Part shown: piece by piece, positions 21,063 to 38,519 of the stretch
How the letters are laid out: every line of letters starts with the position of its first letter
How positions within the stretch are numbered: position 1 is the stretch's first letter
From: a virus
Virus genome (UHGV): UHGV-0071757
Length of the DNA stretch: 38,572 nucleotides
Reading direction: 5' to 3' (one strand)
Position numbers and translations under genes: made by a program
Notes under the pieces: model-generated
Told to the model about the DNA's origin: nothing
Databases searched by the model: none
What the model saw: only the letters and a program-made list of their open reading frames with translations

Positions 21063-21567
21063 TTCTAATGTCTCCCCAAGTCTACTCAAGTATTTAAAAA
21101 CCTCTTATAATCCGCATGTTAGCGCCCCTTTTAGTCTTTTGACGTCTACTTAAGTACCCCAAAATCTACAGTCAATTGGGGGTACTTTTGGGGGTATTTG
21201 CTGTTCGGTTTAGTGGAGGTACCCCCAAGTGAAACTCAATGCCCGTCAAATAGACACTGCCAAGCCAAAAGAGAAGGCTTACAAGCTGGCTGATGGTGGT
21301 GGTCTGTATCTCCTGGTAAAACCTAGTGGAGGAAAATATTGGCGCTTCAAGTATCGTGTAGCTGGTAAAGAGAAGCTGTTAGCACTAGGTGTGTATCCTG
21401 AAGTTACCTTGGCTGATGCTCGTGCAAAACGTGAAGAAGCTAAAAGGGGTATCGCTGGGGGTATCGATCCGATGGAAGCGAAACGAGAGGAAAAGATTGC
21501 CCGGGAAACGCAGTTAAACAACACCTTCAAAGATATTGCCCTTGAGTGGCACAGCAGCAAATTAAAA
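21047..21567 (+). repeat. direct repeat copy A (att core + int promoter + first ~112 codons of int)
   Basis: About 90% identical by eye to 38013-38519. Contains GGGGGTACTTTTGGGGGTAT-type motifs. Confidence 0.85.
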
Positions 21568-22443
21568 AAATGGTCTGCTGGTTATGCTTCAGACATCCTC
21601 GAAGCCTTCAACAAAGATGTGTTCCCTTACATTGGCAAAAAACCAATCGCCGAAATCAAACCACTTGAACTGCTGAATGTGCTGCGGCGCATCGAGGGGC
21701 GCGGTGCTACCGAAAAAGCCAAAAAAGTGAGGCAGCGATGCGGGGAAGTTTTCCGCTATGCAATTGTCACTGGACGTGCTGAGTATAACCCTGCACCGGA
21801 TCTCACCAGCGCGATGCAAGGTCATGAATCTAATCATTATCCTTTCCTCACAGCCAAAGAATTACCTGATTTTTTCAAGGCATTGTCCAGTTACTCAGGA
21901 AGTGCATTGGTTGTTATGGCGGCTCGTCTACTGATTATCACCGGTTTGCGGACTGGCGAACTGCGCGGTGCATTATGGGATGAAATCGATCTCAACAAGG
22001 CTATCTGGGAGATACCTGCTTCACGGATGAAAATGCGTCGCCCTCATGTGGTGCCTTTGTCTAAGCAGGCTCTTTCGCTTATTGGGCAGATTAAAGAATT
22101 AACTGGCAATTATCCGCTTATGTTTCCCGGCCGTAATGATCCAAGGAAAACAATGAGCGAGGCTAGCATAAACCAAGTATTTAAACGCATCGGCTATAAC
22201 GGAAAGGTTACTGGTCATGGATTCCGGCACACCATGAGCACCATTTTGCATGAGCAGGGCTATAACACCGCGTGGATAGAGACACAGCTTGCACACGTCG
22301 ATAAAAACTCAATTCGTGGCACATACAACCATGCGCAATATCTGGATGGTCGCCGGGAGATGCTCCAGTGGTATGCCGACTATATGGATTCGCTCGAGCA
22401 TGGCGGTAACGTGGTGCATGGCAAGTTCGGAAAATGTGGATGA
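21229..22443 (+). CDS. int: P4-family tyrosine integrase
   Basis: 404 aa, GTG start. N-terminal arm-binding-type domain (GGGLYLLVKPSGGKYWRFKYR) and C-terminal catalytic residues (HGFRHT ... RGTYNHAQY). Directly downstream of the tRNA fragment. Confidence 0.9.
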   Translation: MKLNARQIDTAKPKEKAYKLADGGGLYLLVKPSGGKYWRFKYRVAGKEKLLALGVYPEVTLADARAKREEAKRGIAGGIDPMEAKREEKIARETQLNNTFKDIALEWHSSKLKKWSAGYASDILEAFNKDVFPYIGKKPIAEIKPLELLNVLRRIEGRGATEKAKKVRQRCGEVFRYAIVTGRAEYNPAPDLTSAMQGHESNHYPFLTAKELPDFFKALSSYSGSALVVMAARLLIITGLRTGELRGALWDEIDLNKAIWEIPASRMKMRRPHVVPLSKQALSLIGQIKELTGNYPLMFPGRNDPRKTMSEASINQVFKRIGYNGKVTGHGFRHTMSTILHEQGYNTAWIETQLAHVDKNSIRGTYNHAQYLDGRREMLQWYADYMDSLEHGGNVVHGKFGKCG

Positions 22444-23383: not shown

Positions 23384-23530
23384 TACCCTGAGGGTGATTT
23401 ACTGTTACCCTGAGGGTATTTTTTTATCTTCCCCGTCAATTTTACCATCACCCTTAGGGTAGATTTCCTCCCGATTACCATCACCCTTAGGGTTAATTTC
23501 CTTCCGGTAACCATTAGGCCTGAGGGTATG
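23384..23530. repeat. five copies of ACCCT(G/T)AGGGT-type motif upstream of alpA
   Basis: Copies at about 23384, 23406, 23450, 23483 and 23517 in the intergenic region. Likely protein-binding sites. Confidence 0.6.
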
Positions 23531-23596
23531 AAAATATTCGTTATTTCTGTGCCAGGATTACCTCGTCAAATTGAGTAGACGTTATGAGGTAAATAT

Positions 23597-23794: not shown

Positions 23795-23871
23795 TTAAAT
23801 GGCTACGGGGCTATTGCCCCCAGCTATCCACCAGCAAATAAAAGTAACTTAATTCGATAGCAGGAGTTTTT

Positions 23872-24672: not shown

Positions 24673-25344
24673 CGCTCTGACCGTTACAAAAAGAGAAAGC
24701 GCCCCGTTGCCGGAGCGCCTTTGTGAACGAATAGCCTACTGCGCCATATTGCTTACTGTCTACGAGGCAGATTATAGCGTTGTGGTCGCACAGAGTGAAG
24801 GCGCTGATCACCGTTACTACAGCACGCCAGAAATGCAGAATATTTTGCTGCAAAATGTCGTTGGTCACGCTGTCCGGAAAGCAAAAAATTTTGCTGGTGG
24901 CGCGACTGATGCGATTTTGTCAGGTCGCAAGGTGATGATCAATCTGATGTCTAATTTCGTTCTGGATAAAACAAAGGCGACCGCAGAGGGCCACCAGTGG
25001 GAAAGCTACACACTTGAACACATCGCCAACAATGCCAGATTTGCGGCTGGTGGGCAATGTGATCAGTGTGTTGGCTTGCTGGTGGGCTATTCCTGCTCTT
25101 TAACATTGCCATGCCGCGATGTTTTCCAGGTATGCGACCCCATTTTTGTGCGCCTGTACTCTTTAAGGAATTTCTCAAGGATAAACGCACAGGGCGCGAA
25201 TCTGTCTGACTCATATTCGTACGTTATCTTTCTGCGCTGTCTTTTCCGTGCCGGTGATGGTGTATTGGTCGATTCTTTGTTGGTCATTCTGTGTACCTGT
25301 AAAGCAATGCGCCGGAGTTCCTCACACCACGGCGATGATAGTTA

Positions 25345-25650
25345 TTATTCTGATTCTTTGGCCTTGCGGCGCTGGAGTTCTTCACGTGCGACGGTGACGA
25401 GCTGCCCGATCTCCTCGACAGCTTTGACTCCGATTTTTTCCACCTGCGCCAGTGCATTGAGCGAAGAAACCAGGGGATTTTCTCCGCTTCCTTCTGCCTG
25501 GCGGCGGGCGATCTCACCACGCATGGCGGTTACTATGAATCCGGCGTTGCTTTCGCCGTCCAGTTTTACGGATTCCATGCCTTCAAAAGCATCATGTGGG
25601 ATACGAATTGAAATCTGTTTTGATTTGTCGTTGATAGTGTTTTTTGCCAT
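25345..25650 (-). CDS. putative ribbon-helix-helix transcriptional repressor
   Basis: Start taken at the ATG with SD TAGGAGA 7 nt upstream (MAKNTINDKSKQISIRIPHDAFEGMESVKL...). Beta-strand/helix pattern typical of RHH, helical C-terminus. Divergent from the downstream operon. Confidence 0.6.
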   Translation of the reverse strand: MAKNTINDKSKQISIRIPHDAFEGMESVKLDGESNAGFIVTAMRGEIARRQAEGSGENPLVSSLNALAQVEKIGVKAVEEIGQLVTVAREELQRRKAKESE

Positions 25651-25672
25651 GTGCATTCTCCTAAACAAAAGA

Positions 25673-25748
25673 TGTGATTCAGTATACACAAAAAAGAATC
25701 ACAAAAAATACTTGACCTGTGATTCAGTTAAATTTAATTTAAATCACA
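25673..25748. promoter_or_regulatory. two palindromic operators (TGTGATTCAG-N-GAATCACA) in a divergent promoter region
   Basis: O1 25673-25702 and O2 25719-25748, with a TTGACC -35-like hexamer between them. Located between the RHH gene and the 25838 operon. Confidence 0.55.
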
Positions 25749-25837
25749 CCTCAGTAAGAGGATATAAACGACAACGCCCCGAACTGTTTGCGGCAGTAGC
25801 GGGGCGTCTAACCAAACCGTTAAATGAGGTAACGATT

Positions 25838-26203
25838 ATGGCTGGGGCACAGCATACCCAAACTCACCCTAAATTTATATACACCTTCTTGGCGGTGCAC
25901 CGTGATTGCATGGCTGACGGTAAAAACACTGTTCATGTAGCCGCCGATACGCTGGTTGATGCCTGCGAGATGCTCAATGACATGGGCTATATCTCGGCAA
26001 CATGGAAAGGGCGCGAAGAAAACACGTTGTTTATTCAGAAATGCGAAAACAATTTTATCTGGCGTTTTATCGCCCTGAGTACGGCACAACCGCGCGTGAT
26101 TCACATCGAGGCCACCAGCGAACAGGAAGCACGCCAGCAATCTCCTGATGGCTGCGTGATGGTATTCGCTGCCCGTATTCGCCAGGAGGTGGAGCATGTG
26201 TAA
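25838..26203 (+). CDS. hypothetical protein (first gene of replication/regulatory operon)
   Basis: ATG 25838 with GAGG SD 8 nt upstream, 121 aa. It is the in-frame 3' part of the 512-aa ORF in the track. Confidence 0.55.
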   Translation: MAGAQHTQTHPKFIYTFLAVHRDCMADGKNTVHVAADTLVDACEMLNDMGYISATWKGREENTLFIQKCENNFIWRFIALSTAQPRVIHIEATSEQEARQQSPDGCVMVFAARIRQEVEHV

Positions 26204-26420
26204 TGCAACATGGCCTGATGCAGCGGTAGACGCTATCAAAACGCTGATGGATTCACTTATTGAGATTTCTGCTATCGCTGGTGTGGCGCATAAACACGCA
26301 GCCAGAGAATCAGAATGCATCTCCCATTATTTAGCATTTGTGCAGCTGAAAGCCGATCAGGCACTGGATAAGGCCGGAAAAATTATCATGGCTGATGTAC
26401 AGGAGGTGCACCATGCATAA
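26196..26420 (+). CDS. hypothetical small protein
   Basis: 74 aa. Start overlaps the upstream stop (ATGTGTAA). Confidence 0.45.
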   Translation: MCNATWPDAAVDAIKTLMDSLIEISAIAGVAHKHAARESECISHYLAFVQLKADQALDKAGKIIMADVQEVHHA

Positions 26421-26778
26421 CCTGTCAATTTCTGACCTTAACAGCATTCAGTTTGACGAGATATTTTCCGGGCAGCTACTGGTCAACGTGGAGAATGGAC
26501 GCGTGGTAAGTAATTATCACCTGCCGGATGGTGCAATTGCCGGAAGCGTTGAAGCATTGCTGGAACTGGCGGAACGTGCGCGACTGATTAAGCCGTCAAC
26601 GTGCCATCACGATGATGATCTGCATTTTACCGGGTGTATGGTGAGTCACTACGAAAACGGCGTTGAAGTATCCTGCGAACGTCTGCGTGATGATTGCTGT
26701 TTCGGCACACTGCCGGAATTTATCGAATTGCTGACCAGTTGCGGTTATCAGGTCATTCAGGGGGGTAAACATGCGTGA
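26413..26778 (+). CDS. hypothetical protein
   Basis: ATG 26413 with AGGAGG 7 nt upstream. Overlaps the previous stop (ATGCATAA). Confidence 0.55.
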   Translation: MHNLSISDLNSIQFDEIFSGQLLVNVENGRVVSNYHLPDGAIAGSVEALLELAERARLIKPSTCHHDDDLHFTGCMVSHYENGVEVSCERLRDDCCFGTLPEFIELLTSCGYQVIQGGKHA

Positions 26779-27004
26779 TGATCGTTTTAATTCCCTGAAA
26801 CAGGAGTTTGATGGCGCACCGGAAGATACATCGGGCGCATTGTTGAGCATTGCTGACATGATGAAAGCTGCATATTTTCTTATCAATACCATTGGCTACA
26901 AGTCAGAGGGTGAAATGATTCTTAGTATTGCGTCGGACTATGCTGAATATGTGGCAGAGACGCGTTACAGAAGAAAATCTCTGGAGGATGTAAGCCATGC
27001 ATAA
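26771..27004 (+). CDS. hypothetical small protein
   Basis: 77 aa. Start overlaps the upstream stop, suggesting translational coupling. Confidence 0.5.
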   Translation: MRDDRFNSLKQEFDGAPEDTSGALLSIADMMKAAYFLINTIGYKSEGEMILSIASDYAEYVAETRYRRKSLEDVSHA

Positions 27005-27197
27005 TCATGAAGCGCATGTACCCGTAGTGCTTAATGTGCCAGATGATTTCACCGGACGCGTGCTGGTTTACCTTGATAAAGAAAAAGTGAAATCACAATG
27101 CCGACTGAAAAGTAATGAGATTGTGGGTTCTCCTGAATTTTTTTCTGAACTCTGTATTCGTGCAGAAATAAAACCGGAACTGCTGACAGGAAAATAA
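26997..27197 (+). CDS. hypothetical small protein
   Basis: 66 aa. Start overlaps the upstream stop (ATGCATAA). Confidence 0.45.
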   Translation: MHNHEAHVPVVLNVPDDFTGRVLVYLDKEKVKSQCRLKSNEIVGSPEFFSELCIRAEIKPELLTGK

Positions 27198-27201
27198 AAC
27201 C

Positions 27202-27492
27202 ATGAAAAGGAAAAATTCTGGCTTTACTGCCAGCGGTCTCTCTCGGCCTGAAATCAGACACGGAGATATTTACCGCGACACCAGACGTGGGGGACGAGTG
27301 GTTATTCGTCACGTTACGCCAGGCAATATCACCTACCGCCGTGAGGCTTACGAATATGACTGCGTAATGCCGCGCCGTCAGTTTGAGCGTGATTTTATTC
27401 TGGTGGAAAACAAACAACAGGCAGTGGCGAGACGTGCAGCCACGAATATTAAAAAAATCCGGGCAATGTTGGTTGCGGGAGGTAAGAAGTGA
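27202..27492 (+). CDS. small basic protein, possibly DUF4222-like
   Basis: 96 aa. RGGRVVIRHVTPGNITYRREAYEYDCVMPRRQFERDFILV resembles small proteins found upstream of primases in P4-like islands (recall, low confidence). Confidence 0.5.
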   Translation: MKRKNSGFTASGLSRPEIRHGDIYRDTRRGGRVVIRHVTPGNITYRREAYEYDCVMPRRQFERDFILVENKQQAVARRAATNIKKIRAMLVAGGKK

Positions 27493-29294
27493 AAAACGCA
27501 CCGAATTTAAAATATCAGCCGAAGGATAAATTCACCGAGGTAATCATTTTTGCCGGGACGGATGCTTACGCCCATGCTCAACACTGGATTGAAAGCGAAG
27601 GACGAAAACACGGCGATAACGTGCCTCCTGTTTACCTGGGGCCAAAGCAACTGGCAGACCTGGCGAATATCCGCATTGTCGACGATGAACGCCGCTTTGC
27701 GCGTGTCTATCTCGCGGGGGAGATAGAGCCAATCCAGATCAATGCTATTGCTGAAAAGCTGGCGCTGGCTGGTGTACAGGACGCGAAATTATACAAAGGT
27801 ATCACCGACCGGGAGCCGGAAAACTGGCGCGACTACCTGCAACGGATCCGCGAACAGGCAGAGAGTGGGGAAGTTTCAGCGATGAAATTAGCCACAAAAA
27901 ATATTGACCTATCCAGGCCAGCACTAAATCAGATGGGAGCCAGCCAGAGAGGGGAAGTGTTACTTGAATATTATGGAAGAGCACTGGCTATAAATGATGA
28001 TTCTGATGTAGTTCACCATTACAACGGAATTGTCTGGGTGCCTGTATCTGATAAGGAACTCCAGCGGTCTATGGCGAAGATTTTTATTGATGCTGGAATC
28101 AGTTATTCGCAAAACGCCATTAAATTTGCCGTAGACACAATGAAATTGAGCCTGCCTGTTATGGGCGGGGCAGACAGGAATCTTATTGGATTCAGTAACG
28201 GGGTATTTGATACCCGGACGGGAAATTTTCGGGAGCATAACAAAAATGACTGGTTGTTAAATGCCAGTGAATTACCGTTCAGCCCACCAGCAGAGGGGGA
28301 AACGCTGGCAACACATGCGCCGAATTTCTGGAAGTGGCTGCGTCGTTCGGTGGCAGATAATGATCGTAAAGCTGATCGCGTACTGGCGGCATTATTCATG
28401 GTGCTGGCGAACCGGTACGACTGGCAGTTATTCCTTGAGGTAACAGGCCCAGGCGGAAGCGGTAAAAGTGTGATGGCTGAGATTTGTACCATGCTGGCGG
28501 GTAAGGCCAACACAGTATCGGCAAGCATGAAGGCTCTGGAAGACGCAAGGGAACGCGCGTTAGTAGTTGGCTTTTCGCTGATTATCATGCCGGATATGAC
28601 TCGCTACGCTGGCGATGGTGCAGGAATTAAGGCAATTACTGGCGGCGACAAGGTGGCAATTGATCCGAAACATAAAGCCCCCTACTCCACACGTATTCCG
28701 GCAGTAGTGCTTGCGGTAAACAATAACGCCATGTCATTCAGTGACCGAAGCGGGGGGATCTCGCGTCGTAGGGTGATATTTAATTTCTCTGAGGTCGTAC
28801 CGGAGAACGAACGCGATCCCATGCTGGCGGAAAAGATAGAAGGCGAACTGGCGGTAGTGATTCGCCATTTGCTAACACGATTTACCGACCAGGACGAAGC
28901 TAAAAGACTACTTTATGAGCAGCAAAAATCAGAAGAAGCGCTGTTGATAAAGCGCGAAGGTGATTCACTGGTGGACTTTTGCGGCTATCTGATGTCGTTG
29001 GTTAAATGTGAAGGAATGATGGTGGGCAATGCGGAAATAGTGCCATTTAGCCCGAGGCGATACCTGTATCATGCTTATTTAGCCTATATGTCAGCGCATG
29101 GCCTGGGAAAACCAGTATCACTGACACGCTTTGGTACTGATATGCCAGGAGCTATGGCGGAATACGGAAAGGAGTATAAGCGGGCTAAATGCACTAAAGG
29201 CCCGGATAAAGGGCGAGTGATAACAAATGTTCTGTTAGATGATGATGCTGATGGCTGGTTGCCAGCAGCTACAGGGATTAACGACAGAACATAA
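27489..29294 (+). CDS. primase/helicase-like replication protein (D5-N/P4-alpha C-terminal type, P-loop NTPase)
   Basis: 601 aa. Walker A TGPGGSGKS preceded by a region resembling D5_N/primase C-terminal domains. Followed immediately by the iteron array. Confidence 0.75.
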   Translation: MKNAPNLKYQPKDKFTEVIIFAGTDAYAHAQHWIESEGRKHGDNVPPVYLGPKQLADLANIRIVDDERRFARVYLAGEIEPIQINAIAEKLALAGVQDAKLYKGITDREPENWRDYLQRIREQAESGEVSAMKLATKNIDLSRPALNQMGASQRGEVLLEYYGRALAINDDSDVVHHYNGIVWVPVSDKELQRSMAKIFIDAGISYSQNAIKFAVDTMKLSLPVMGGADRNLIGFSNGVFDTRTGNFREHNKNDWLLNASELPFSPPAEGETLATHAPNFWKWLRRSVADNDRKADRVLAALFMVLANRYDWQLFLEVTGPGGSGKSVMAEICTMLAGKANTVSASMKALEDARERALVVGFSLIIMPDMTRYAGDGAGIKAITGGDKVAIDPKHKAPYSTRIPAVVLAVNNNAMSFSDRSGGISRRRVIFNFSEVVPENERDPMLAEKIEGELAVVIRHLLTRFTDQDEAKRLLYEQQKSEEALLIKREGDSLVDFCGYLMSLVKCEGMMVGNAEIVPFSPRRYLYHAYLAYMSAHGLGKPVSLTRFGTDMPGAMAEYGKEYKRAKCTKGPDKGRVITNVLLDDDADGWLPAATGINDRT

Positions 29295-29319
29295 TACGAA
29301 ATTTATAAGCTGAAACGTA

Positions 29320-29660
29320 AAGGTAGACGGTTGGTAGACAGATTCACTTAACCCTCTACCAACCATCTACCAATTAATATTTTGAATTATAAAGATATTT
29401 TCAATGTGGTAGAGAGGTAGACAGTTATTTCTATATTCCTAAACCACGGGGGGTATATAAAAAACAGATAGTTAAGGGGGCATTTTTTAAATTTCTCTTT
29501 TAACTGTCTACACTGTCTACCATTTAGTAAAAATCATTAATTATCAATGTATTAATGCGGTAGACCGTTGGTAGACAGTTTGCAGATTGTTTTTTTGTTA
29601 TGTGTTAATAACATTAAATAAATCAATCAATTATATCGGTAGACAGTTGGTAGACAGTTG
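29320..29660. repeat. putative island replication origin: ~12 GGTAGAC(N)G iterons in both orientations with AT-rich spacers
   Basis: Copies at about 29322, 29333, 29354(rc), 29364(rc), 29408, 29416, 29505(rc), 29514(rc), 29558, 29568, 29637 and 29648. AT-rich stretches lie between clusters. Confidence 0.6.
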
Positions 29661-29665
29661 TAACG

Positions 29666-30208
29666 ATGGGGCAAAGCATGACTAAGCTGACCATTAACAG
29701 AAAACCAAAAGGTATTTACGGCACGCCGCAGAAAACGACGCAGGCGGCACAGGAGCAGGATAAAACCACATCGGCGCATAAAGTGATGCCCGGTAACCAG
29801 AAAGCGCAGCAGAAGCCTACAGGGGCGACACCGTGGCGGCATATGACCAAACGCCAGCGCAAAAACCGCAGGCGCGTTAACCGCCTCACTGAGTTGTGGC
29901 CTGACTTATTCAGCCGGGAAGCACTGAAGCCGCTTAAGGTGGGGATATTCGACGACCTGATGCAGGATCTCGCCGTCAGGGGGCTGGCATTCGGGCCAGG
30001 GGCATTGCGTGCGACGCTGGCATCTTATGCGCAGTGTCCGCGCTATTACCGCGCCTTAATGGCTGGTGGGGTACGCTACGACCTGAAAGGCCAGCCGTGC
30101 GGCGAGGTGACACCACAGGAACAACAGGACGCAGAAACGCGGCTGGTGGCGCTGAATGAGAAGCGCAAACGCCAGCGCCGGGCAGCAAAGGAGACAATAG
30201 GCGCATGA
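29666..30208 (+). CDS. ProQ/FinO-family RNA-binding protein
   Basis: 180 aa. LTELWPDLFSREALKPLKVGIFDDLMQDL...RYDLKGQPCGEV matches the FinO/ProQ N-terminal domain pattern. Basic N- and C-terminal tails. Confidence 0.7.
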   Translation: MGQSMTKLTINRKPKGIYGTPQKTTQAAQEQDKTTSAHKVMPGNQKAQQKPTGATPWRHMTKRQRKNRRRVNRLTELWPDLFSREALKPLKVGIFDDLMQDLAVRGLAFGPGALRATLASYAQCPRYYRALMAGGVRYDLKGQPCGEVTPQEQQDAETRLVALNEKRKRQRRAAKETIGA

Positions 30209-30492
30209 TTCACGACAGCAAAGCGGAAGCACTGGAAGCGCGTGGTCTGTACCGGAGAGCGGCGGCGCGGTGGGCTGAGGTCATCATGCTGGCGAATGAT
30301 GACAAGGCACGGGAACAGGCGGCAAAACGTCGCGCGGAATGTATCCACAAGGCAGCACGCCCACCAGCAAGGCAGGATAATTTCGGGGAGATGCGCGAAA
30401 CCATCAGCCGGGCACATGCCGGGATGGGATTACATCAGCCCAATGGTGAGGCATTCAGGAAATACCAAAAAAAGAACAATTGTAGTCAGTAA
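30205..30492 (+). CDS. PerC-family transcriptional regulator
   Basis: 95 aa. SKAEALEARGLYRRAAARWAEVIMLANDDKAREQAAKRRAECI resembles PerC-type activators. Overlaps the upstream stop. Confidence 0.65.
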   Translation: MIHDSKAEALEARGLYRRAAARWAEVIMLANDDKAREQAAKRRAECIHKAARPPARQDNFGEMRETISRAHAGMGLHQPNGEAFRKYQKKNNCSQ

Positions 30493-30626
30493 CAGAGGAT
30501 GGGATTCTCTTGGTTTTTTGTTGATGCTTTCTGAGGAAATCTACTACGTTGCTGAGCAGATGAATATTCAATTGCATCTGGGTTCCTGATAAGATTAATC
30601 TGAATATTTTCATTTGGAATAGGGAT

Positions 30627-31769
30627 ATGAATAAAACTTTAATTGCAACATTAGTCGGTATAGTAATGTTAACCGGATGTGGGCCAGAAGAGTTAACTCC
30701 AGAACAGAAACAGGAAGTAGCTGCTCTTAAAGCTGAACTGTCGCAAACGGAAGGTGAAATATCAGCAGCTAAGGAAGTTGACCAGCAGTTTTCTGGTGGG
30801 TTGATAAAAAATCTGACAACAGCAAGACTGGAAATATTAGGAACTAATAAAGCGCTTTTGGAACAGCGTATTAATGCTATTGAATCAGGTGCCAAAATTG
30901 ATGTTGTTGTATCTGGAGTAAAACCTGATCCTGAGCTTGCGGCTTCAATTAAAACTGAAATTGACAGCTTAGATGCAAAAATCAACGAAGCCAAAGCTGA
31001 TGCTCGTCAGTATAGTGGTGGTCTGATAAAGGTACTAAAATTATCTACTGTTGCCACTGAAGAGCAGACCATGGCAATGTTGCAGCAAAAGTACCTCACA
31101 GCCAAGTATGGCCTCGCTGAAGTTAAGCTGGCATCAGTACAAGCTAATGACGCAAAAAACAGTACTGAAACGGAAGTAACAGCCAAAAATTCCCAAGAGC
31201 AACTTCCTTTACTCCCGCCAGCGGATGGTCCGTTTGGCTTAGAAGCCGGTCTTACACAGAAAAACATCGAAGATATGATCGGTGCTAAGCTCAAGCCACT
31301 ACCAGACAGTGTGAATCTGTATACTTCTGATAAATTACCGAAGCAAAACGCAGATTTTGAAATGTATGGTTTGCTGATCTCCCCGAAAGCTGGTTTATGT
31401 CAAATACGGGCTTTAGGAAAAAATATTGATACTGATAGCTATGGATTGGCTCTTAAATCCAAGTTTGAAGAATTGAGTAATTCTTTAAGTTCTCTGTATG
31501 GAAAGGCTGATACTACAGACTTTTTGCTGGCTGGTTCAATTTGGAAAGATCCTCAGGACTGGATGAGGGGGCTAAACAAAAAAGAACGCTTCTTATCTGC
31601 TACATGGAAGGGAACAAAAGAAATACCATTAAAAAACAATATTGATACTATATCTATTGAGGCCAGAGCGAACAATTCCACTCAGGGATATGTCTATCTG
31701 CAGTACTCATTTACAAATGACGAAATTTGTCAGGCAGAAATTGAAGGGGCGAAAAAAAGTTCCCTTTAA
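30627..31769 (+). CDS. lipoprotein with internal repeat, unknown function
   Basis: 380 aa. Signal peptide plus lipobox VMLTGCG. Duplicated (Q/R)Q(F/Y)SGGLIK segments. Strong terminator downstream. Confidence 0.7.
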   Translation: MNKTLIATLVGIVMLTGCGPEELTPEQKQEVAALKAELSQTEGEISAAKEVDQQFSGGLIKNLTTARLEILGTNKALLEQRINAIESGAKIDVVVSGVKPDPELAASIKTEIDSLDAKINEAKADARQYSGGLIKVLKLSTVATEEQTMAMLQQKYLTAKYGLAEVKLASVQANDAKNSTETEVTAKNSQEQLPLLPPADGPFGLEAGLTQKNIEDMIGAKLKPLPDSVNLYTSDKLPKQNADFEMYGLLISPKAGLCQIRALGKNIDTDSYGLALKSKFEELSNSLSSLYGKADTTDFLLAGSIWKDPQDWMRGLNKKERFLSATWKGTKEIPLKNNIDTISIEARANNSTQGYVYLQYSFTNDEICQAEIEGAKKSSL

Positions 31770-31780
31770 ACAATCCGTGC

Positions 31781-31806
31781 AAAGCCCCTTAGTAAGGGGC
31801 TTTTAT
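31781..31806 (+). terminator. rho-independent terminator
   Basis: agcccctt/aaggggct stem followed by TTTT. Confidence 0.7.
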
Positions 31807-31833
31807 ATATTAATGTTCAACGTGGGGGATTAG

Positions 31834-32157
31834 ATGAAAGATAATCTAGCAAAACTAATTGAAAATACTTTAAAAGATATTCTATTAGCTAATGCTGCTC
31901 TAACATTCATTTTTGCAATACCAATGGCTATTATCAGTAGGCATGGGATGGGCATCACAATCTGGTTTATAACTGTGCTCATTGCACCTGCTCTGTGTGC
32001 AGTAGGTGCATGGCTTGTATCTCGAACATCCGGCCATGCTGAGGAGTTCTTTCATCGTCGGTGGGCTAAGCGAATTTATGTTTTTTATACTCTTGCGGCT
32101 GCCGAGTTTTTGCTTGTGTACTCAATCGCGCAAATAATGAAAAATCTGATGAAATAA
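31834..32157 (+). CDS. small inner-membrane protein
   Basis: 107 aa with 2-3 predicted TM segments (LLANAALTFIFAIPMAII, ITIWFITVLIAPALCAVGAWLV). SD GGGGGA upstream. Confidence 0.55.
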   Translation: MKDNLAKLIENTLKDILLANAALTFIFAIPMAIISRHGMGITIWFITVLIAPALCAVGAWLVSRTSGHAEEFFHRRWAKRIYVFYTLAAAEFLLVYSIAQIMKNLMK

Positions 32158-32445
32158 TTAACAAGTTATTATCATGGAGCTTGTGGCTGTTAACCTGCAG
32201 TGAGGCGACAATCGTGTATTTATAAAAACTTCCCCTTTTCACTCCCCGCAGCTTCTTCTGCTATTGCCTTTATGTTTGCATGCACCAACATCTGCCATAC
32301 CTTTGCAGAAAAATCAGAGCATTCAGTGCCGAAGGTTGGTTTATTGATGCTTTTCGTTTCATTTATTGCAATTGTCTCTGGTATCATTTCAATTTGTGCA
32401 ATAATTGCAATAATTGCAATTATTGTCATTCAGAAGGGATCATCA

Positions 32446-32612
32446 TGAAAAATCACGGAGTAAAGCCAGTTTTACTTTCCCGGAGGCAGATCGAAGCCCT
32501 GCAACGCATCCAGGACGAAGAGCGTCAGAAATCTGTGCTTGGTGTGGCACCGTCGATTCATGTTATCGCTCGGCAACTGATGGATAAGGCACTTAAAGAG
32601 GTGAGACTGTGA
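32446..32612 (+). CDS. hypothetical small protein (possible DNA-binding/antitoxin-like)
   Basis: Taken from the internal ATG 32446 of the 32280-32612 ORF, with AAGGG upstream, giving 55 aa. Basic helical segment SRRQIEALQRIQDEERQ. Confidence 0.4.
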
Positions 32613-32881
32613 AATTAAATATCAGAGTGGATAAACGCCAGCTATGGCAGAAAAAAGAGAACAGCGAGGCATTCAGGGCGTTGCTGGTGGAAAATCTTCA
32701 GCATCGGTTCAGTGGAGAGTTGCCTGATGCTCTAGGGAAGAAACTGGAATCCCTGACGGTGGAAATTGGCGATTATGGCTTTGTTGATGTTGAAAGCACG
32801 ACTGCCAACACAGAAATCGTAAAACAGGTCGTCAATGATGTAATGAAAACCACGCTTAGCCAGCCATCCTGGCGCAACTGA
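32609..32881 (+). CDS. hypothetical protein
   Basis: 90 aa, GTG start overlapping the upstream stop (GTGA). Followed by a hairpin. Confidence 0.5.
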   Translation: MKLNIRVDKRQLWQKKENSEAFRALLVENLQHRFSGELPDALGKKLESLTVEIGDYGFVDVESTTANTEIVKQVVNDVMKTTLSQPSWRN

Positions 32882-32886
32882 ATCAG

Positions 32887-32912
32887 TAAGGGGCGGTTAT
32901 TGCCCCTTTCCT
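32887..32912 (+). terminator. putative terminator hairpin
   Basis: aaggggc/gcccctt stem. The U-tract is weak (tttcc). Confidence 0.45.
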
Positions 32913-32962
32913 CCATACCCACAACGCATTCCCTTTCCGCATGAAATTATTTTTTATCGTAT

Positions 32963-33508
32963 ATGCATGAGGTGAGCTACATGTTGATGAGTAAAGCCGA
33001 ATACGCCAAATACAAAGGCGTAAGCCGCCAGACAGTTTACGACTGGCTCGAGAAAGGCGAAGTGGTCATGTCCGGTAAAAAAATTGATGTGGAAGCGACA
33101 GAGCAGCGGAACAGCCCACCAGCACAGGGGAAAGACACCATTTCTGAAATGTGGCCAGAAAGAACGCTGGAAATGACATGGGGCGAGTTCTGGAAAGCAG
33201 TTAAGGCCAGAGACGGTAAAATTCCTGCGCCAGTAACGGACGAGGGCATACAGCAGCGTGTGCTGTATGCAGCCGGGGAATTAGGCTGGGAAGTGCACTT
33301 TCTTGATGATGGTGCTATCTGCCTTGAGGATGATGAAGGGCAGCATTACTTTGAAAAATACAATTTGCGAGGTAATGCCAGGCTGGCAATTCGTATGCTG
33401 CGTTGCGAACTCTGCTATGTTGCAGGTGATTATCCCGATGAACCGGAATCATGGAGTGAAGCCGGGTTAAACGCCCTGGCTGAGTGGGAAAAATCAGACC
33501 ATCAATGA
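32963..33508 (+). CDS. helix-turn-helix DNA-binding protein
   Basis: 181 aa (a likelier start is ATG 32981 after GAGG). N-terminal HTH SKAEYAKYKGVSRQTVYDWLEKGEV. Ends 3 nt before the repeat region. Confidence 0.65.
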   Translation: MHEVSYMLMSKAEYAKYKGVSRQTVYDWLEKGEVVMSGKKIDVEATEQRNSPPAQGKDTISEMWPERTLEMTWGEFWKAVKARDGKIPAPVTDEGIQQRVLYAAGELGWEVHFLDDGAICLEDDEGQHYFEKYNLRGNARLAIRMLRCELCYVAGDYPDEPESWSEAGLNALAEWEKSDHQ

Positions 33509-33510
33509 CA

Positions 33511-33810
33511 TCAAAAAGTGTCAAGTTGAGCAGCTTGCCAGCTTGCCAGCTTGCCAGCTTGCCAGCTTGCCAGCTTGCCAGCTTGCCAGGTTGACACTTT
33601 ACACTCTGAACGCGAAAAAGTGTCAACCTCGCTGTAAGCCCCGCAATTACTGGGTTTGTGCCAGATTTACCACGTCAAAAAGCCGAAAAAACCGCGAAAA
33701 ATGTCAAGTTGCCATGCTTAGAAATGCTAAGGTTTTTCGCGAAAAAGTGTCAAGTGTGTCAACCTGCGATATTAAGATTTATTAAGGTCTTAAGCCGGAA
33801 AGTGTCAACC
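33511..33810. promoter_or_regulatory. array of dispersed (A)AAGTGTCAA(G/C) motifs (about 7 copies, one inverted)
   Basis: Motif copies near 33517, 33590(rc), 33619, 33700 (variant ATGTCAAG), 33746, 33755 and 33801, several with a CGCGAAAAA prefix. Confidence 0.6.
33531..33586. repeat. (CAGCTTGC)x7 octanucleotide tandem repeat
   Basis: Counted directly: 7 perfect 8-nt units (56 nt), flanked by inverted half-sites AGTGTCAA (33516-33523) and TTGACACT (33591-33598). Confidence 0.95.
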
Positions 33811-33929
33811 AGCCCCCTAAGATTTCCTAAGGTGTGATTGGACGTGCTGTACCCTTCTTGTCGCAATGTGGATGAATGACTATAGTGCTGGTAGCTTTGA
33901 CAGCAGAATCAGATTACTGAAGGAAATGT

Positions 33930-34514
33930 GTGATGAGTTTTTTTAGTCTTTATGGGAAAGAACTATTTTCTTTTTTTATAACGATTTTAACATGGATACT
34001 GAATAACAGATTTAAAAGCAAGGCAAAGTTATCCTATGGTTATCAGCATGGATTTACTTTTCTTCTCAATGAACCCTTACGGAATGCCAATGGTGAGGTA
34101 ATATCTAATTCACAGTTGGTGTATACACGATCTATTATTCTTGTTAATGAAGGGCGAGAAAGTGCTACTAATATCTCATTGGTTTTTAACTATAAGCCAA
34201 TGCATATTAATTTTTGGCCTGTCCACCATTTTGAAGAAAATATTGAACAGGATGGTCGCTATATTATCAAGTTTGAAAGCCTTGCACCTGGTGAGTCTAT
34301 TCAATGTGAAATATTATCAATAAATAGAGAAGTTCCAAGTATTCTATCGATAAGATCTAAAGAGTGTGTGGCTGAGCCAGTGAATATCGTGATGCAAAAA
34401 TCGATTAGTAATATTGCCTTACGTTGCTATCAATTATTAATACTTCTTGGAACTGGCACATTAACATATTTAATTATCGTTATTCTGCAATGGTTAGTCA
34501 CTAAAACGGGATAA
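33930..34514 (+). CDS. AT-rich membrane-anchored protein, unknown function
   Basis: 194 aa. N-terminal TM (LFSFFITILTWIL) and C-terminal TM (LLILLGTGTLTYLIIVILQWLV). Markedly AT-rich codon usage by eye. Confidence 0.6.
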   Translation: MMSFFSLYGKELFSFFITILTWILNNRFKSKAKLSYGYQHGFTFLLNEPLRNANGEVISNSQLVYTRSIILVNEGRESATNISLVFNYKPMHINFWPVHHFEENIEQDGRYIIKFESLAPGESIQCEILSINREVPSILSIRSKECVAEPVNIVMQKSISNIALRCYQLLILLGTGTLTYLIIVILQWLVTKTG

Positions 34515-34536
34515 TCCATTGTATTGAACTTATTAA

Positions 34537-34746
34537 TTGGATATGAGTGCTGATAGGAAACCTATGACCATCACCGAAGCCGATATGCTGGAGATGATCC
34601 GCAGCATTGCCGGAATCAAACAACCAGCAAGCAAAATTAACAGGTGTTCAGCGCCTGTTTCCGTTGTGCTGCAACAGGAACGCCACCAGCGGCGGGAAAA
34701 CGAAAAGGCGTACCAATGGACGAAGCCAAACAAGTTACGGCGTTAA
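34537..34746 (+). CDS. hypothetical small protein (uncertain)
   Basis: 69-aa ORF followed by a good terminator. No motif. Confidence 0.35.
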   Translation: MDMSADRKPMTITEADMLEMIRSIAGIKQPASKINRCSAPVSVVLQQERHQRRENEKAYQWTKPNKLRR

Positions 34747-34752
34747 TTAGGG

Positions 34753-34778
34753 ATGCGGGCTGGGATAGCCCGCATTTT
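34753..34778 (+). terminator. rho-independent terminator (possibly bidirectional)
   Basis: atgcgggct/agcccgcat stem followed by TTTTG. Lies between convergent ORFs. Confidence 0.6.
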
Positions 34779-34780
34779 GC

Positions 34781-35038
34781 TCACAGCTTGTTATAAATTT
34801 TTCCAGCGAAGTCATGAACCGCCTGAGGAATATCCGACGGCGTACCTAGCATTGTTGGCGCATCGGAAACAAAGAACATGATCGCTTCTTTGATTTCTTT
34901 GAAAGATGGGGTAGGGGTAATGCGCTTGAGATTTGAAACAGCCCGTCGGAACTCCGCCGTATCCATTGGATGCCTGCTAAACCACGTTGGACTAGAAGCC
35001 CAACATTTTACTGCTTCTTTCACCTTAGTGTTCATCAT
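34781..35038 (-). CDS. hypothetical small protein
   Basis: 85 aa, tandem ATG start with SD AAGGAAAA upstream on the minus strand. Confidence 0.5.
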   Translation of the reverse strand: MMNTKVKEAVKCWASSPTWFSRHPMDTAEFRRAVSNLKRITPTPSFKEIKEAIMFFVSDAPTMLGTPSDIPQAVHDFAGKIYNKL

Positions 35039-35640
35039 TTTTCCTTTTGCTTATTACCATACAAAGCATGTGGAAAGAGAAGATTAACATGGAAAATATG
35101 GGGTTGGTGAGCAAATGGTACTGGTAGCCCGTCGACATCTATCAGCATGATGATGTGAGGCCGTATCAGTGGCGGAAACCGAACAGGCTGCGACGGTGAG
35201 CGGGGCGTTATAGTAAGCCAACAGCCAAGCCAAACATTAAGCCTAAGGGTAGGGCTTTTTTGTGGCTGGTGGCGTAATGCCAACATTTTTACATGATGTT
35301 TTGAGGTATTATCTGCATGTTCGTGGTGAGGAACCACCAGAACTGATGAGCTTTTGTTTATGCATGTACTGCATGAAAACTGTCCTATAAAGTGGGGGGT
35401 AGGTGTGCTGAGGAGAACATTGTGAGCTACGCCAAATTAAATTGTGTCGGGGGTGAACAAGTTTCTTGATAGGTGTCAGTAGGCACCTATAGTTATAGGC
35501 TTCTTCAATTTTGTGTGCACAATATTTTGTATTGATTGGGGATAGGGTTGCACGCAAAATTAAAAAATGTATATTTATTAACGTGTATTTGATAATTTTT
35601 AAATAAAATATTTCTCTATGTTTATCATAAAAGGTTTTTT

Positions 35641-37239
35641 ATGAGCGTGGCAATAAAAACAATGACACCAGTGTCATATTCTATAAAAGTTGATGCGATT
35701 AAGAAAAGATTGTCATATTTTAGTGATGTTTCTTTTTTGAGAAATTTTTATGAACACTTCCAAAAAGTAAGGGATGTCGAGGTGGGTATTGTTTCCAATT
35801 TCCCTTGGTGTTGCTATCTGGCAATGAAATGGAAGTTTTGCATGAAGGAAAAAAAGCCTGCAAAAGAAATGAGTAAAAATGATTTTGTTGATATTATCAA
35901 CTTAATCTATAACTTGCAACTAGAAGCATCTAATTTAATCGTTGATGATAAAGTTATGCTAAGCCTTAGACGAATGGTGATAAATCAGTTGCTTTATCAA
36001 TCAACTGATAAATTTAATGCCAATTCATTAACAAGACAGTATATTTGGTATTGCTTGAATGATGAATCATATTATAAAGATAAGTTTTTAGAATGTACTG
36101 GTTTACATTTGGAAAACTATTACAAAATGGCATGTTATTTTACCGCTATTTCATGTATTAATCCTGATATAGAATCAGAGGTTATTCCATTTAAACACTT
36201 GATAATAAACTTGGTTCCGATATTTGGTCCGGAACAAGTGAAAAGATTTTTGGAATTAACATGCTTAAAAATTGATGGTGTGAGAGATTTTATTGCCCCA
36301 TATAAATTGGATAAAAACATTACCGCTGAGTATTATGAAGATACACCATTCCTCAGTAAACCAATGTTTTTAGATGGCGATGGTGTAGTGATATTATGCA
36401 AAAGAATCATGAAGTCAGGGTTTGTCAACCTAGTTCCAGAATTGTTCAAGCAGGTCTATAAGGAATCTTATAAAGAAAAATTTGGTAAGACGATGGAACT
36501 TTATATTTCTCGCTTTCTTGATAAGTACAATTATAACTTTAAGACTGAAAGGGAGGTTAAGAGGATTTATAGTGATAATGCAATAAAAAATTGCAAGTCC
36601 GTAGATTTTGTTATTTCAGAGGGAGATTCAATAGTTTATATTGACTCGAAGGCAATAGAGCCTGCAAAGTTCGTTAAAACATCTAATAATGCTCAGTTGC
36701 TAAAGGAAAGGTTGAATAAGAGTTTTATTAAAGGGATTTATCAAGGTCAGGAATGTGCTTTTAACTTAAATAAAATAGAGATGAGAAAACCATCTTCGAA
36801 AGATTCAATGTTAATTGTGGTGCATCGGGATCATCATATATCAAATGCAATGGTTGTGCAGGATTTTATTAACCCTGATTTATCAACTGAGTTATCTGAA
36901 AAATATCATAGTATCCCCATTGATCTAAAAAGAATTTACTATATAACAATTGATGAGTTCGAATTATTACTTATGATGTGTAAACAGAAAGAACTATCTA
37001 TTAATGAGTTTATTGATATGTGTGTGGAAAAAGATTCATTCCCTCATACTCAGAAGTCTAATCTAAGCATGCACATATATGAATTTGCACCAGAGGGTAT
37101 TGATGATGATCAATTGATTGTAAAAGGAAGAGACTTACTGATTGATGATGTTATTGAAAATATGAAAGAGAGTGCATCAAAATGGTCTGGGAAAGTTGAT
37201 ATGTATCTTAAAATAAAAGATTATATTTTTAATTGGTAA
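35641..37239 (+). CDS. orphan 532-aa protein, possible PD-(D/E)xK-like nuclease motif; candidate defence/accessory protein
   Basis: Long ORF with strongly AT-rich codon usage, its own AT-rich upstream region and a strong terminator. Segment SVDFVISEGDSIVYIDSKA fits a beta-hairpin D ... (D/E)xK pattern. No other recognisable motif. Confidence 0.7.
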   Translation: MSVAIKTMTPVSYSIKVDAIKKRLSYFSDVSFLRNFYEHFQKVRDVEVGIVSNFPWCCYLAMKWKFCMKEKKPAKEMSKNDFVDIINLIYNLQLEASNLIVDDKVMLSLRRMVINQLLYQSTDKFNANSLTRQYIWYCLNDESYYKDKFLECTGLHLENYYKMACYFTAISCINPDIESEVIPFKHLIINLVPIFGPEQVKRFLELTCLKIDGVRDFIAPYKLDKNITAEYYEDTPFLSKPMFLDGDGVVILCKRIMKSGFVNLVPELFKQVYKESYKEKFGKTMELYISRFLDKYNYNFKTEREVKRIYSDNAIKNCKSVDFVISEGDSIVYIDSKAIEPAKFVKTSNNAQLLKERLNKSFIKGIYQGQECAFNLNKIEMRKPSSKDSMLIVVHRDHHISNAMVVQDFINPDLSTELSEKYHSIPIDLKRIYYITIDEFELLLMMCKQKELSINEFIDMCVEKDSFPHTQKSNLSMHIYEFAPEGIDDDQLIVKGRDLLIDDVIENMKESASKWSGKVDMYLKIKDYIFNW

Positions 37240-37243
37240 TTAA

Positions 37244-37275
37244 GCAAGGGTGTTATTATCAACACCCTTGCTCAT
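37244..37275 (+). terminator. rho-independent terminator
   Basis: 11-bp stem gcaagggtgtt/aacacccttgc with a 6-nt loop. Confidence 0.65.
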
Positions 37276-38012
37276 AGTCTTACAATATTAAATGTTGTGT
37301 TTTTTATTTATATATTTTATTGCCCATCAAGCTATTAATTCATCTCGTTGTTTGAGATAGGTTGAGCATTTGTATTTTTTTATCAATTTTATCTGTATGA
37401 GCTTAAGCAGCTTCAATAATATCTGCGTTAAATTACGCTTCATTCAGAGACGTGCTTGCTATTGACATGTAATCCATGTGCAACAAGATTCCTGCCATAA
37501 CTTATGCGTTTCAGATCCGAATCATGGACTGCTTTAAGTCATTTTTGTAGGGAAAACATGTTCACATGTCAGCACTGATTTGTTTCATCATATCCACTAT
37601 CTCGAATTTCTGTGTCGATAGATGAATGCAGACGGAAATATGTGAATTTTGTGCACGCTCTGCTATTAAGCGAAAACGAGCGTGGATATATCAACTAATA
37701 ATTGCCCTCATTAACATAGGTGGTGGCGGGTATAATCTCTGTAACCCAGTTGTTCGTGACTACCCACCTCGTCAAATTTTCACACCCGCGAAATGAAAAA
37801 TACTTCACGCTAGTGGTTATCCTTGGGCATCCACCAGCCCTTCATCATTGCCTGCCGGTGAGGCTGAGGCTCGAAGAAAAAGAGTGCTAGATAGTCGATT
37901 TTTGCCTGGTTTGGGATAAGGGAAAATTTATTGGGGGTACTTTTGGGGGTATCTATAAAAATGAAATATGAAAATATCATTAAATATCAATGTATTTTTT
38001 GTTTATGTTTTG

Positions 38013-38029
38013 TTCCTATTATCGCACCA
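38013..38029 (+). other. second att core: 16 nt matching the tRNA-Thr 3' end (tcctattatcg-cacca)
   Basis: Matches 21047-21062 with a 1-nt deletion, then continues into the duplicated int promoter region. Confidence 0.75.
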
Positions 38030-38519
38030 TTCTAACGTCTCCCCAAGTCTACTCAAGTATTTAAAAACCTCTTATAATCAGTATATTAATGCCCCTTTTA
38101 GTCTTTTGACGTCTATTTAAGTACCCCAAACTCTACAAGCAATTGAGGGGATTTGCTGTTCAGTTTAGTGGAGATACCCCCAAGTGAAACTCAATGCCCG
38201 TCAAATAGACACTGCCAAGCCAAAAGAGAAGGCTTACAAGCTGGCTGATGGTGGTGGTCTGTATCTCCTGGTAAAACCTAGTGGAGGAAAATATTGGCGC
38301 TTCAAGTATCGTGTAGCTGGTAAAGAGAAGCTGTTAGCACTAGGTGTGTATCCTGAAGTTACCTTGGCTGATGCTCGTGCAAAACGTGAAGAAGCTAAAA
38401 GGGGTATCGCTGGGGGTATCGATCCGATGGAAGCGAAACGAGAGGAAAAGATTGCCCGGGAAACGCAGTTAAACAACACCTTCAAAGATATTGCCCTTGA
38501 GTGGCACAGTAACAAATTA
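38013..38519 (+). repeat. direct repeat copy B (att core + int promoter + int 5' end)
   Basis: Aligns by eye with 21047-21567, with a ~12-nt deletion in the GGGGTAC motif region and scattered mismatches. Confidence 0.85.

Follow-up and report, generated by a model that had tools for sequence, protein, structure and literature searches.

The DNA analysed here, a stretch of 38,572 nucleotides from a virus (UHGV virus genome UHGV-0071757; hereafter the window), carries a ~17-kb element at ~21047-38060 that is a phage satellite of the phage-inducible chromosomal island (PICI) type. It is integrated at thrW and forms a tandem with a neighbouring CUS-3/HK620-like prophage. The present work concerns the last conserved core gene of this island, which encodes a helix-turn-helix (HTH) protein, and the 300 bp past its stop codon, which hold an array of short repeated sites and a tract of octamers. 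The gene lies on the plus strand at 32981..33508 and encodes a protein of 175 aa with two domains, an N-terminal winged helix and an alpha/beta C-terminal domain. An earlier note on this DNA had placed its start at 32963, but a start at 32981 (MLMSKAEY..., 175 aa) is likelier, as in all homologues and in RefSeq.

The sites of the array, called A-sites here, begin 6 nt past the HTH stop codon with A-site 1 (AAAGTGTCAAG, 33515-33525, plus strand). It forms the left arm of an inverted pair, the right arm being A-site 2 (AAAGTGTCAAC, 33590-33600, minus strand). These inverted AAAGTGTCAA sites bracket the octamer tract, (CAGCTTGC)x7 at 33531-33586 (also 33531..33586 as a feature of the spacer), in which all units are perfect; it is an expanded single-copy segment in the spacer of A-sites 1 and 2, with CAG microhomology at its flanks. 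Tandem Repeats Finder (TRF) called it at 33531-33593 with a period of 8, 7.9 copies and 98% matches. A perfect 7-unit tract between inverted GTGTCAA sites had been described in the earlier note and was confirmed, although not its start 3 nt past the stop codon: the stop codon is at 33506-33508 and the tract begins 22 nt after it. Five further sites follow downstream. They had been taken for five more GTGTCAA copies, but only four match this heptamer exactly, the fifth being ATGTCAA. A GTGTAAA variant (33598-33604, minus strand) adjoins A-site 2, both together reading TTGACACTTTACAC on the plus strand (33590..33604). All remaining A-sites are on the plus strand. A-site 3 (AAAGTGTCAAC, 33617-33627) is followed by a non-repeat segment, GCTGTAAGCCCCGCAATTACTGGG (33632..33655), which several satellite clades have conserved in their arrays. 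A-site 4 (AAAATGTCAAG, 33698-33708) is degenerate, and its E. ruysiae copy is perfect. A-sites 5 and 6 form an overlapping pair 9 nt apart, AAAGTGTCAAGTGTGTCAAC (33744..33763, sites at 33744-33754 and 33756-33762), and A-site 7 (AAAGTGTCAAC, 33799-33809) is the final one.

Clustering of the A-sites in the window far exceeds chance. Six of the seven exact GTGTCAA heptamers of the whole 38.6 kb sit within 291 bp, and the 11-mer at no more than 1 mismatch gave 8 matches against 1.7 expected, a count reached in 0 of 100 shuffles. Between stop-10 and stop+400 the binomial p for enrichment was 2.5e-11. The spacings are 102, 81, 46, 9 and 46 nt and the orientation is mixed. The inverted pair of A-sites 1 and 2 is a palindrome capable of forming a hairpin, with -12.2 kcal/mol (z -4.6) in the one-unit form and -23.2 kcal/mol (z -2.5) in the seven-unit form.

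A second motif, the B doublet, occurs 14-15 nt after an A-site. Three doublets were found on the plus strand, GCTTAG-AAAT-GCTAAGG (33716..33732), ATTAAG-ATTT-ATTAAGG (33771..33787) and CCTAAG-ATTT-CCTAAGG (33816..33832). A palindrome, TTTTTCGCGAAAAA (33733..33746), stands between the first of them and A-site 5, and the Enterobacter locus L010 has TTTTTTGCGCAAAAA at the equivalent position. The two halves of nnTAAS-AWWT-nnTAAS are identical within a doublet and different between doublets (GC, AT and CC here; GG, AG and GA in Serratia, where the B-doublet region of locus L013 spans 10680-11030), and the doublets resemble 1.6-copy tandem repeats of a 10-bp unit. The arrays of E. ruysiae and Yersinia have one extra 10-bp unit, GTTAAGGTTT. 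Since the B doublets and the extra GTTAAGGTTT are further tandem duplications of 8-10 bp, the array region may be slippage-prone in general. Elsewhere in the island two more short tandem repeats were observed, TGCAATAAT x3.2 (32397-32425) and a 33-bp unit x2.2 (23442-23514).

The association of gene and array extended well beyond the window. At least three sites followed the gene of an HTH homologue in 79 of 88 related loci of Enterobacterales. The A-site consensus from 400 sites in 72 distinct arrays is 12 bp long, AAAGTGTMAASY, and bases outside the search pattern were conserved as well (AAA 79-92%, S 92%, Y 94%). The p for enrichment past the stop codon ranged from 2e-3 to 1e-12 in the seven groups compared, namely E. 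coli, E. ruysiae, Pantoea, Klebsiella, Enterobacter, Serratia and Yersinia. A common layout was recognized: a plus-strand A-site at or just past the stop codon, a minus-strand one 25-35 nt further on, then mainly direct copies. The doubled hexamer nnTAAS-AWWT-nnTAAS, 14-15 nt after an A-site, was present in E. coli, Yersinia, Enterobacter and Serratia. On these sequence comparisons, HTH gene and array appear to be cognate. Both were absent from EcCIMP1, a PICI of strain MP1 that has the thrW attachment (att) site, att core and integrase family in common with the island of the window. Because EcCIMP1 is without them, gene and array would constitute an exchangeable right-hand module rather than a universal part of PICIs.

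The array always stood at the border of the island core with defence cargo or attR. Homology between islands with different cargo stopped at ~33810-33835, right after the last A-site, and the cargo found downstream of the module comprised GapS1, ApeA with AbiV, an OLD-family protein and Abi_2; in Enterobacter a KAP NTPase lay beside the HTH gene. Since the cargo is swapped and homology breaks after the array, the array is part of the conserved core and does not go with a particular cargo gene. An open reading frame (ORF) of 60-62 aa ending ...ERHRQR..YQW(K/R)KPxxxRR, without family match, was found 3' of the array in six genera (L006 10864-11052, L013 11070-11258, L016 10906-11094, L003 from 10800, L015 at ~14.7 kb). 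In the window this conserved 60-aa ORF of the right-end module is at 34564..34746 on the plus strand and ends ...YQWTKPNKLRR before its stop. In some islands cargo was inserted between the array and this ORF. In Serratia fonticola L014 (10001-14068), a remnant by fis, the HTH gene is followed by ApeA, AbiV, DUF4238 and HNH genes, and array, integrase and primase have been lost.

These breakpoints could also mean that the array is itself a boundary of recombination, where defence cassettes are swapped and small tandem duplications are left as scars. The end of homology after the last site, the different cargo behind the same module in all genera and the recurrence of 8-10-bp duplications in the array would all fit. 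However, the E. coli island has no dedicated recombinase besides the integrase, whose arm sites differ; cargo was also inserted beyond the 60-aa gene, so the boundary is not unique; and homologous recombination alone predicts breakpoints at the edge of any conserved block. We consider this explanation very improbable.

The HTH family has 103 members in E. coli, Citrobacter, Pantoea, Serratia, Rouxiella, Klebsiella, Raoultella, Yersinia and Enterobacter; a single-protein scan of genome contigs yielded three loci only. Its N-terminal 41 residues are near-invariant even at 35% overall identity, and the recognition region V14 S15 R16 Q17 T18 Y20 is invariant among homologues down to the same identity. 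In the structure model, residues 1-45 form a winged helix of the MerR/Xis/TerS type, residues 46-56 a disordered linker and the remainder the alpha/beta domain. The fold class of the N-terminal domain includes Xis, lambda TerS, RppC, Cox and BldC, all of them binders of repeat arrays, and also MerR-type regulators. Foldseek against viral structures returned generic HTH/excisionase matches only (E > 0.08). No tblastn match to the protein was obtained in 50,697 INPHARED phage records or 72,556 PLSDB plasmids, and PADLOC (2023 library) reported nothing significant for the protein or the scanned neighbours, missing GapS1 too.

A lead to the function of the module came from the Klebsiella relatives L005-L008, which sit inside the capsid gene of a helper prophage, the configuration of helper-embedded PICIs. 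For the family of this helper, 80 loci were collected via a capsid fragment. Satellite-free helpers contained no A-site clusters, and they had no DNA in common with the satellite right end beyond captured baseplate genes and one exact 17-mer, CAGATACGAAACCGATA. Of 49 satellite-free helper prophage loci, 35 had this 17-mer of the Klebsiella array in the same orientation. It is located 265 nt into the small-terminase gene terS (phrog_370, E = 1e-100), which is directly upstream of terL. When the 164-nt array was shuffled 2000 times with dinucleotides preserved, no match of 17 nt arose. In 42 alleles of helper terS, 15-nt windows over the site had 1 variable column against a mean of 6.2, and the surrounding stretch was variable. 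With the L099 helper as reference (terS at 3418-4194, motif at 3683-3699), ACGAAACCGAT was essentially invariant where most third codon positions vary, which suggests a cis-acting site within helper terS. The 17-mer is a candidate pac site; it looks like a pac inside terS of which the satellite has a copy. The allele form in the Klebsiella satellite arrays is CA-NNN-ACGAAACCGATA. The comparison was made across the helper loci of the family as a whole. Neither the DUF5681 protein of the satellite nor the HTH protein showed similarity to helper TerS, and helper TerS had no DUF5681 match. As a separate observation, baseplate genes (Dit-like, Pam3_gp18, E217_gp41-like, Apex) lie just upstream of the HTH gene in the Klebsiella, Serratia and Enterobacter satellites (captured late genes at L005 6501-9695, L013 6816-9932 and L016 8448-9899), the Klebsiella copies matching the helper at 66-84%.

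We tentatively favour, with somewhat less than even confidence, the reading that the array is a packaging-recognition module of the satellite, bound by its own HTH protein, and that the complex marks the DNA for the terminase of the helper. The winged helix would bind the A-sites, and the flexible linker would tolerate their varied spacing and orientation. The protein-DNA complex on the array would then label the satellite DNA for the helper terminase as a pac- or cosB-like module, with a logic analogous to that of Rpp-cosB of EcCICFT073, and in the Klebsiella branch the array would enclose a copy of the candidate pac core from helper terS. With octamer expansion the start-to-start distance between the two arms around the tract grows from 25 to 73 bp. 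The earlier note had offered a partition or packaging site bound by the HTH protein as a fallback; its packaging half is thus the one favoured here, with the same reserve, whereas partition is disfavoured, as no ParA is annotated in the island and no family member was found among the PLSDB plasmids. A bolder form of the proposal, which we regard as rather unlikely, is that an HTH adaptor on a AAAGTGTMAASY array around a short copy of the helper pac core, taken from within helper terS, steers the terminase of a headful (pac) helper to satellite DNA, as an undescribed hijack module of Enterobacterales PICIs in which the octamer spacer is the E. coli helper-specific slot and slippage retunes or disables recognition. 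The rival explanations are, in descending order of support, a Cox/BldC-like role in transcription, a maintenance site, the cargo-exchange boundary discussed above and a phase switch.

Several observations weigh against packaging. The HTH protein matched no Rpp, Nu1 or TerS entry of the PDB, either by sequence or by profile; its C-terminal domain matched no known structure or family and contains no recognisable oligomerisation or TerL-binding domain. According to the structure model, the fold would fit an excisionase or a Cox-type regulator equally well. EcCIMP1 is mobilised without the HTH-array module, and the decayed Serratia island L014 retains the HTH gene beside defence genes without an array. 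ACGAAAC, contained in the Klebsiella 17-mer, recurs in many arrays, so that part of the match may be the array's own grammar. In the E. coli lineage, the window array and the adjacent CUS-3-like prophage had only 10-12-mers in common, which is the chance level. The E. coli spacer TTGAGCAGCTTGCCAGG was found in IMG/VR in satellites and in five unrelated singletons, the latter being scattered chance matches; the sister-lineage spacer TCAGGCCGTCCGCCGGG was found there in singletons and in one phage family, in a gene that is terL-like by our own translation and on the opposite strand, which was rejected as probably due to chance. No lambda-type cosN was found in the island, the one match in the window being at chance level and outside it.

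A 13/14 match in terS of the CUS-3-like prophage, on the opposite strand, has a post hoc p of ~0.05 and was not relied on. The expanding E. coli spacer does correspond by position to the Klebsiella interval with the 17-mer. Because no E. coli helper match was found, a packaging function for the window rests on analogy with the Klebsiella branch.

An alternative to packaging is control of transcription. In this case a Cox/Apl/BldC-like HTH regulator on the array would autoregulate, would terminate or insulate transcription that leaves the island core, or would control the 60-aa gene and the cargo, and the inverted pair would double as terminator of the HTH gene. The fold class holds Cox, BldC and MerR-type regulators, and the one-unit pair forms its stable hairpin right past the stop codon; in L052-type lineages the pair with an inner complement, followed by TTTT, resembles an intrinsic terminator. 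The array is just upstream of cargo genes in every genus, the Serratia remnant has kept the HTH gene beside defence genes, and a promoter-like site on the minus strand (TTGACA-18-TAGCAT) was found within the array. This site is, however, not conserved in Enterobacter, nor is the terminator-like form conserved, Klebsiella and Pantoea having 7-bp stems with long loops. The array stays constant while the cargo, which has promoter-like sites of its own, differs between islands, and 300-700 bp with 7 to more than 10 sites would be excessive for a simple operator. The 17-mer in terS would be left unexplained. We regard a transcriptional role as doubtful, if still of appreciable probability.

The octamer tract itself varied in length between strains. 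The window has 7 units, as counted by direct reading or match length like the others. Five were present in K56-43-un, in the IMG/VR locus L021 and in the metagenome contig OKQB01000873, three plus one variant in L023, three in L020 and L022, two in APEC E123, L018 and CI5 (CI5 from match length only), and two imperfect ones in L019. A single unit was read in strain 537-20, in E. ruysiae and in all relatives at greater distance, those in IMG/VR included. The array region was found in 163 of 5426 complete E. coli genomes. Among the matches listed, 73 E. coli genomes could be sized: 66 had one unit, 3 had more than one and 4 (H85-H88) had lengths that did not fit cleanly; the other carriers were unlisted or matched downstream of the tract only. 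A metagenome scan for at least 2 units returned one contig, with 5 units. In nine multi-unit loci, that is, all those named except CI5 and OKQB01000873 and with the window included, the HTH protein was identical to that of the window in eight and differed by one residue in APEC E123.

The one-unit sequence reads GTGTCAA-GTTGAG-CAGCTTGC-CAG-GTTGACAC, with a 17-nt spacer of GTTGAG-CAGCTTGC-CAG. The CAG on both sides of CTTGC is a microhomology that makes a first 8-bp duplication possible. In sister lineages the spacer is again 17 nt long but unrelated in sequence (GTCAGGCCGTCCGCCGG, GTCAGGACGCCCACTGG and GTCAGCCCGTCCGCTGG). Since islands whose DNA is otherwise near-identical differ in having 1, 2, 3, 3+1, 5 or 7 units, the tract mutates faster than its flanks. 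It is hypermutable, young and restricted to the sub-lineage of the window, a recent, slippage-prone expansion within the spacer that separates A-sites 1 and 2 rather than a trait conserved at this locus. Decay affects at least one of the islands that have an expanded allele, because the K56-43-un island with its 5 units (L009) has a frameshifted primase gene (8608-10414); its icd-like gene is truncated (7167-7322).

The earlier note had seen in the tract a phase-variable switch of the AT-rich cargo and had proposed a count of units in related strains, an invariant number being among the outcomes that would speak against it. The number does vary. Slippage in steps of 8 bp would alter the spacing and the helical phase of the sites or of -35 hexamers and so switch, or adjust the volume of, cargo expression. 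Expression-modulating intergenic repeat tracts exist elsewhere, such as nadA TAAA and the hmw 7-mer, and the variation on near-identical islands as well as the change of helical phase by an 8-bp step would agree with such a role. The placement of the tract does not. It lies 3' of a gene, outside any ORF and 344 nt from the next start codon. A consensus-based scan found no promoter across it: the only plus-strand promoter-like site in the scan, TTGTCG-17-TATAGT at 33858..33886 (33858-33886), is ~270 nt downstream, the minus-strand one inside the array is TTGACA-18-TAGCAT, and 2 matches in the region compare with 1.9 by shuffle, which is chance. None of the TTGACA -35-like hexamers noted in the half-sites has a usable -10 at 16-18 nt. 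Exactly one unit was read in 66 of the 73 E. coli genomes sized, and no more distant relative had more than one; the spacer can be exchanged for unrelated sequence without a change of length, the cargo is swapped, and the 5-unit K56-43-un copy sits in an island in decay. Of the characteristics of contingency loci, a variable unit number among close relatives was found, but neither an expression-affecting placement nor a long maintained tract. The switch was therefore not supported and is the least probable of the explanations weighed. More probably than a selected switch, the expansion is something that replication slippage at a palindrome bound by protein has left behind, with no effect or a slight tuning one.

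The surroundings of the module are those of a satellite. The first 20.6 kb of the window are a CUS-3/HK620-like prophage of the P22 type, near the tailspike end of which a perfect heptamer tract of the neuO type, TCAAGAC x13.3, was found at 19901-19993; the slippage tract mentioned at neuO in the earlier note is indeed present there. The island opens at the prophage/satellite junction with a partial thrW 3' end (21033-21062), and an att flank is common to both of its ends (21070/38037). A P4-type tyrosine integrase is encoded on the plus strand at 21229..22443. Between it and the next gene an Rfam int-alpA RNA was detected (22488-22555, 45.5 bits against a gathering score of 35.8), the only Rfam match in the island at E <= 1, with nothing in the array. 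A D5_N/DUF5906 primase-helicase (27489-29294) is followed just 3' by a probable replication origin (29317..29660) with AT-rich stretches and at least 10 copies of the iteron GGTAGAC(A/G)GTT in both orientations at 29317-29660, a motif unlike the A-sites. Other island genes encode AntA/Bro, Icd-like, HTH regulator, PerC, ProQ/FinO and lipoprotein products; no structural or lysis genes were found in the island. A doubled motif, TTGGGGGTACTTTTGGGGGTAT, near both ends (21175-21196 and 37930-37951) probably represents the arm-type sites of the integrase. The array is ~4.2 kb from attR and this arm motif differs from the A-sites; arm or excisionase sites, which would be expected within ~150 bp of the crossover core, were rejected as an identity for the array on these grounds.

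The plus-strand promoter-like site at 33858..33886, a consensus match only, lies in cargo-specific DNA upstream of a 194-aa cargo ORF (33930..34514, plus strand), which is membrane-like and without family. Further along the AT-rich cargo is the anti-phage gene gapS1 (35641..37239, plus strand; NCBIfam NF047931, E = 6e-132, and RefSeq annotation). The element shows an integrase at one end, the thrW att site, AlpA-type regulation, a primase with an origin and a size of ~17 kb, within the 10-20 kb usual for such elements, all of which characterize PICIs, and the same island is found alone at thrW in the complete genomes of APEC E123 and K56-43-un.

The origin bears on whether the array could instead be a maintenance site of the excised replicon. 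It would then act in replication, as a further origin or cis-replication region, or in partition, as a centromere-like site to which the HTH protein binds. Like parS and sopC, the A-sites begin where the gene of the protein stops. The two-motif grammar of the array, heptamer plus hexamer, resembles boxes A and B of P1 parS. There is also a 23/25 match beside RepFIB iterons of P1-like plasmids. On the other side, no gene for a ParA-type ATPase is annotated in the island, the HTH family is absent from the 72,556 plasmids and 50,697 phage records, and a canonical origin with a different iteron already follows the primase gene. The irregular spacing of the A-sites is unlike that of iteron arrays; together with their mixed orientation and the different iterons after the primase gene, it also led us to reject the array as an origin. 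The RepFIB match is at chance: it was the sole one in a blastn search of the one-unit array against phages at E <= 10, in P1-like phage-plasmids and with E = 4. It involves the non-repeat segment GCTGTAAGCCCCGCAATTACTGGG (33632-33655; L204 1501-1525) and lies between a GATC cluster and the RepFIB iterons. A maintenance function is improbable in our view.

We found no description of this HTH-array module in the literature. Several DNA-packaging systems invite comparison with the reading favoured here. In lambda, the winged helix of gpNu1 reads repeated sites of mixed orientation in cosB (R3-I1-R2-R1), as is proposed here for the HTH protein; unlike gpNu1, the satellite protein was not a terminase subunit by any test run. 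P22 pac lies inside gene 3, and the candidate site of the Klebsiella helper, ~265 nt into terS, is similarly placed. Rpp-cosB is the packaging module of the E. coli PICI EcCICFT073 (Fillol-Salom et al. 2019, PMC6739421). Like Rpp, the HTH protein has an N-terminal TerS-like winged helix. It showed, however, no sequence similarity to RppA, RppB or RppC, and its C-terminal domain is alpha/beta, whereas that of RppC consists of three helices/coiled coil. The 12-mer sites are in an array downstream of the gene, cosN and cosQ were not found in the island, and the likely helpers here are headful (pac) phages. Since sequence homology, C-terminal fold and cos anatomy all fail, the HTH protein is not a member of the Rpp family.

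P1 ParB-parS and F SopB-sopC likewise have a cis-site just past the gene of the binding protein and two interleaved motif classes, but in contrast to them the island has no annotated partition ATPase and the HTH family is absent from plasmids. With the contingency loci nadA TAAA, H. influenzae hmw (7-bp) and neuO, the octamer tract has in common a perfect repeat of a short unit whose number varies among close relatives. Contingency tracts such as those of N. meningitidis nadA and H. influenzae hmw are long in most carriers and lie in the promoter, 5' region or ORF. Nearly all carriers of the octamer, by contrast, have it in one copy only, and its place is 3' of a gene with predicted protein-binding sites on either side. 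This calls for caution, as seven perfect units need not be an evolved contingency locus but can have arisen by slippage, recently and in one lineage. The tract may nevertheless be useful as a fast-evolving marker of the island lineage.

The Klebsiella islands L005-L008 resemble the helper-embedded PICIs as these appear in the searched passages of Tommasini, Mageeney and Williams 2023 (PMC10111431), being likewise located in a helper capsid gene, with captured late genes and doubled arm-type motifs flanking attP. The doubled motif there is TGTATTGC, compared with GGGGGTA here; both are arm sites, unlike the A-sites. In the same passages HTH_17 proteins are filed under integration and this array is not mentioned. 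EcCIMP1, a PICI mobilised experimentally by the helper phage vB_EcoP_Kapi1 (Pick et al. 2025, PMC11773190), resembles the island of the window not only in integration site, att core and integrase family. Both also have AlpA, AntA, Icd-like and PerC genes and a vat island next to them. EcCIMP1 differs by captured P22-type ejection-protein genes and by the lack of HTH gene and array, and its packaging mechanism is stated as unknown (PMC11773190). Pathogenic as well as commensal E. coli commonly have EcCIMP1-type PICIs, which carry defence systems such as GapS1, ApeA, AbiV, OLD-family proteins and KAP NTPases. Situated at the border of this cargo hotspot and conserved in at least six genera, the module offers concrete candidates for both the cis-site and the specificity factor that are missing, and the 17-nt match to a conserved spot of helper terS renders the packaging idea directly testable.

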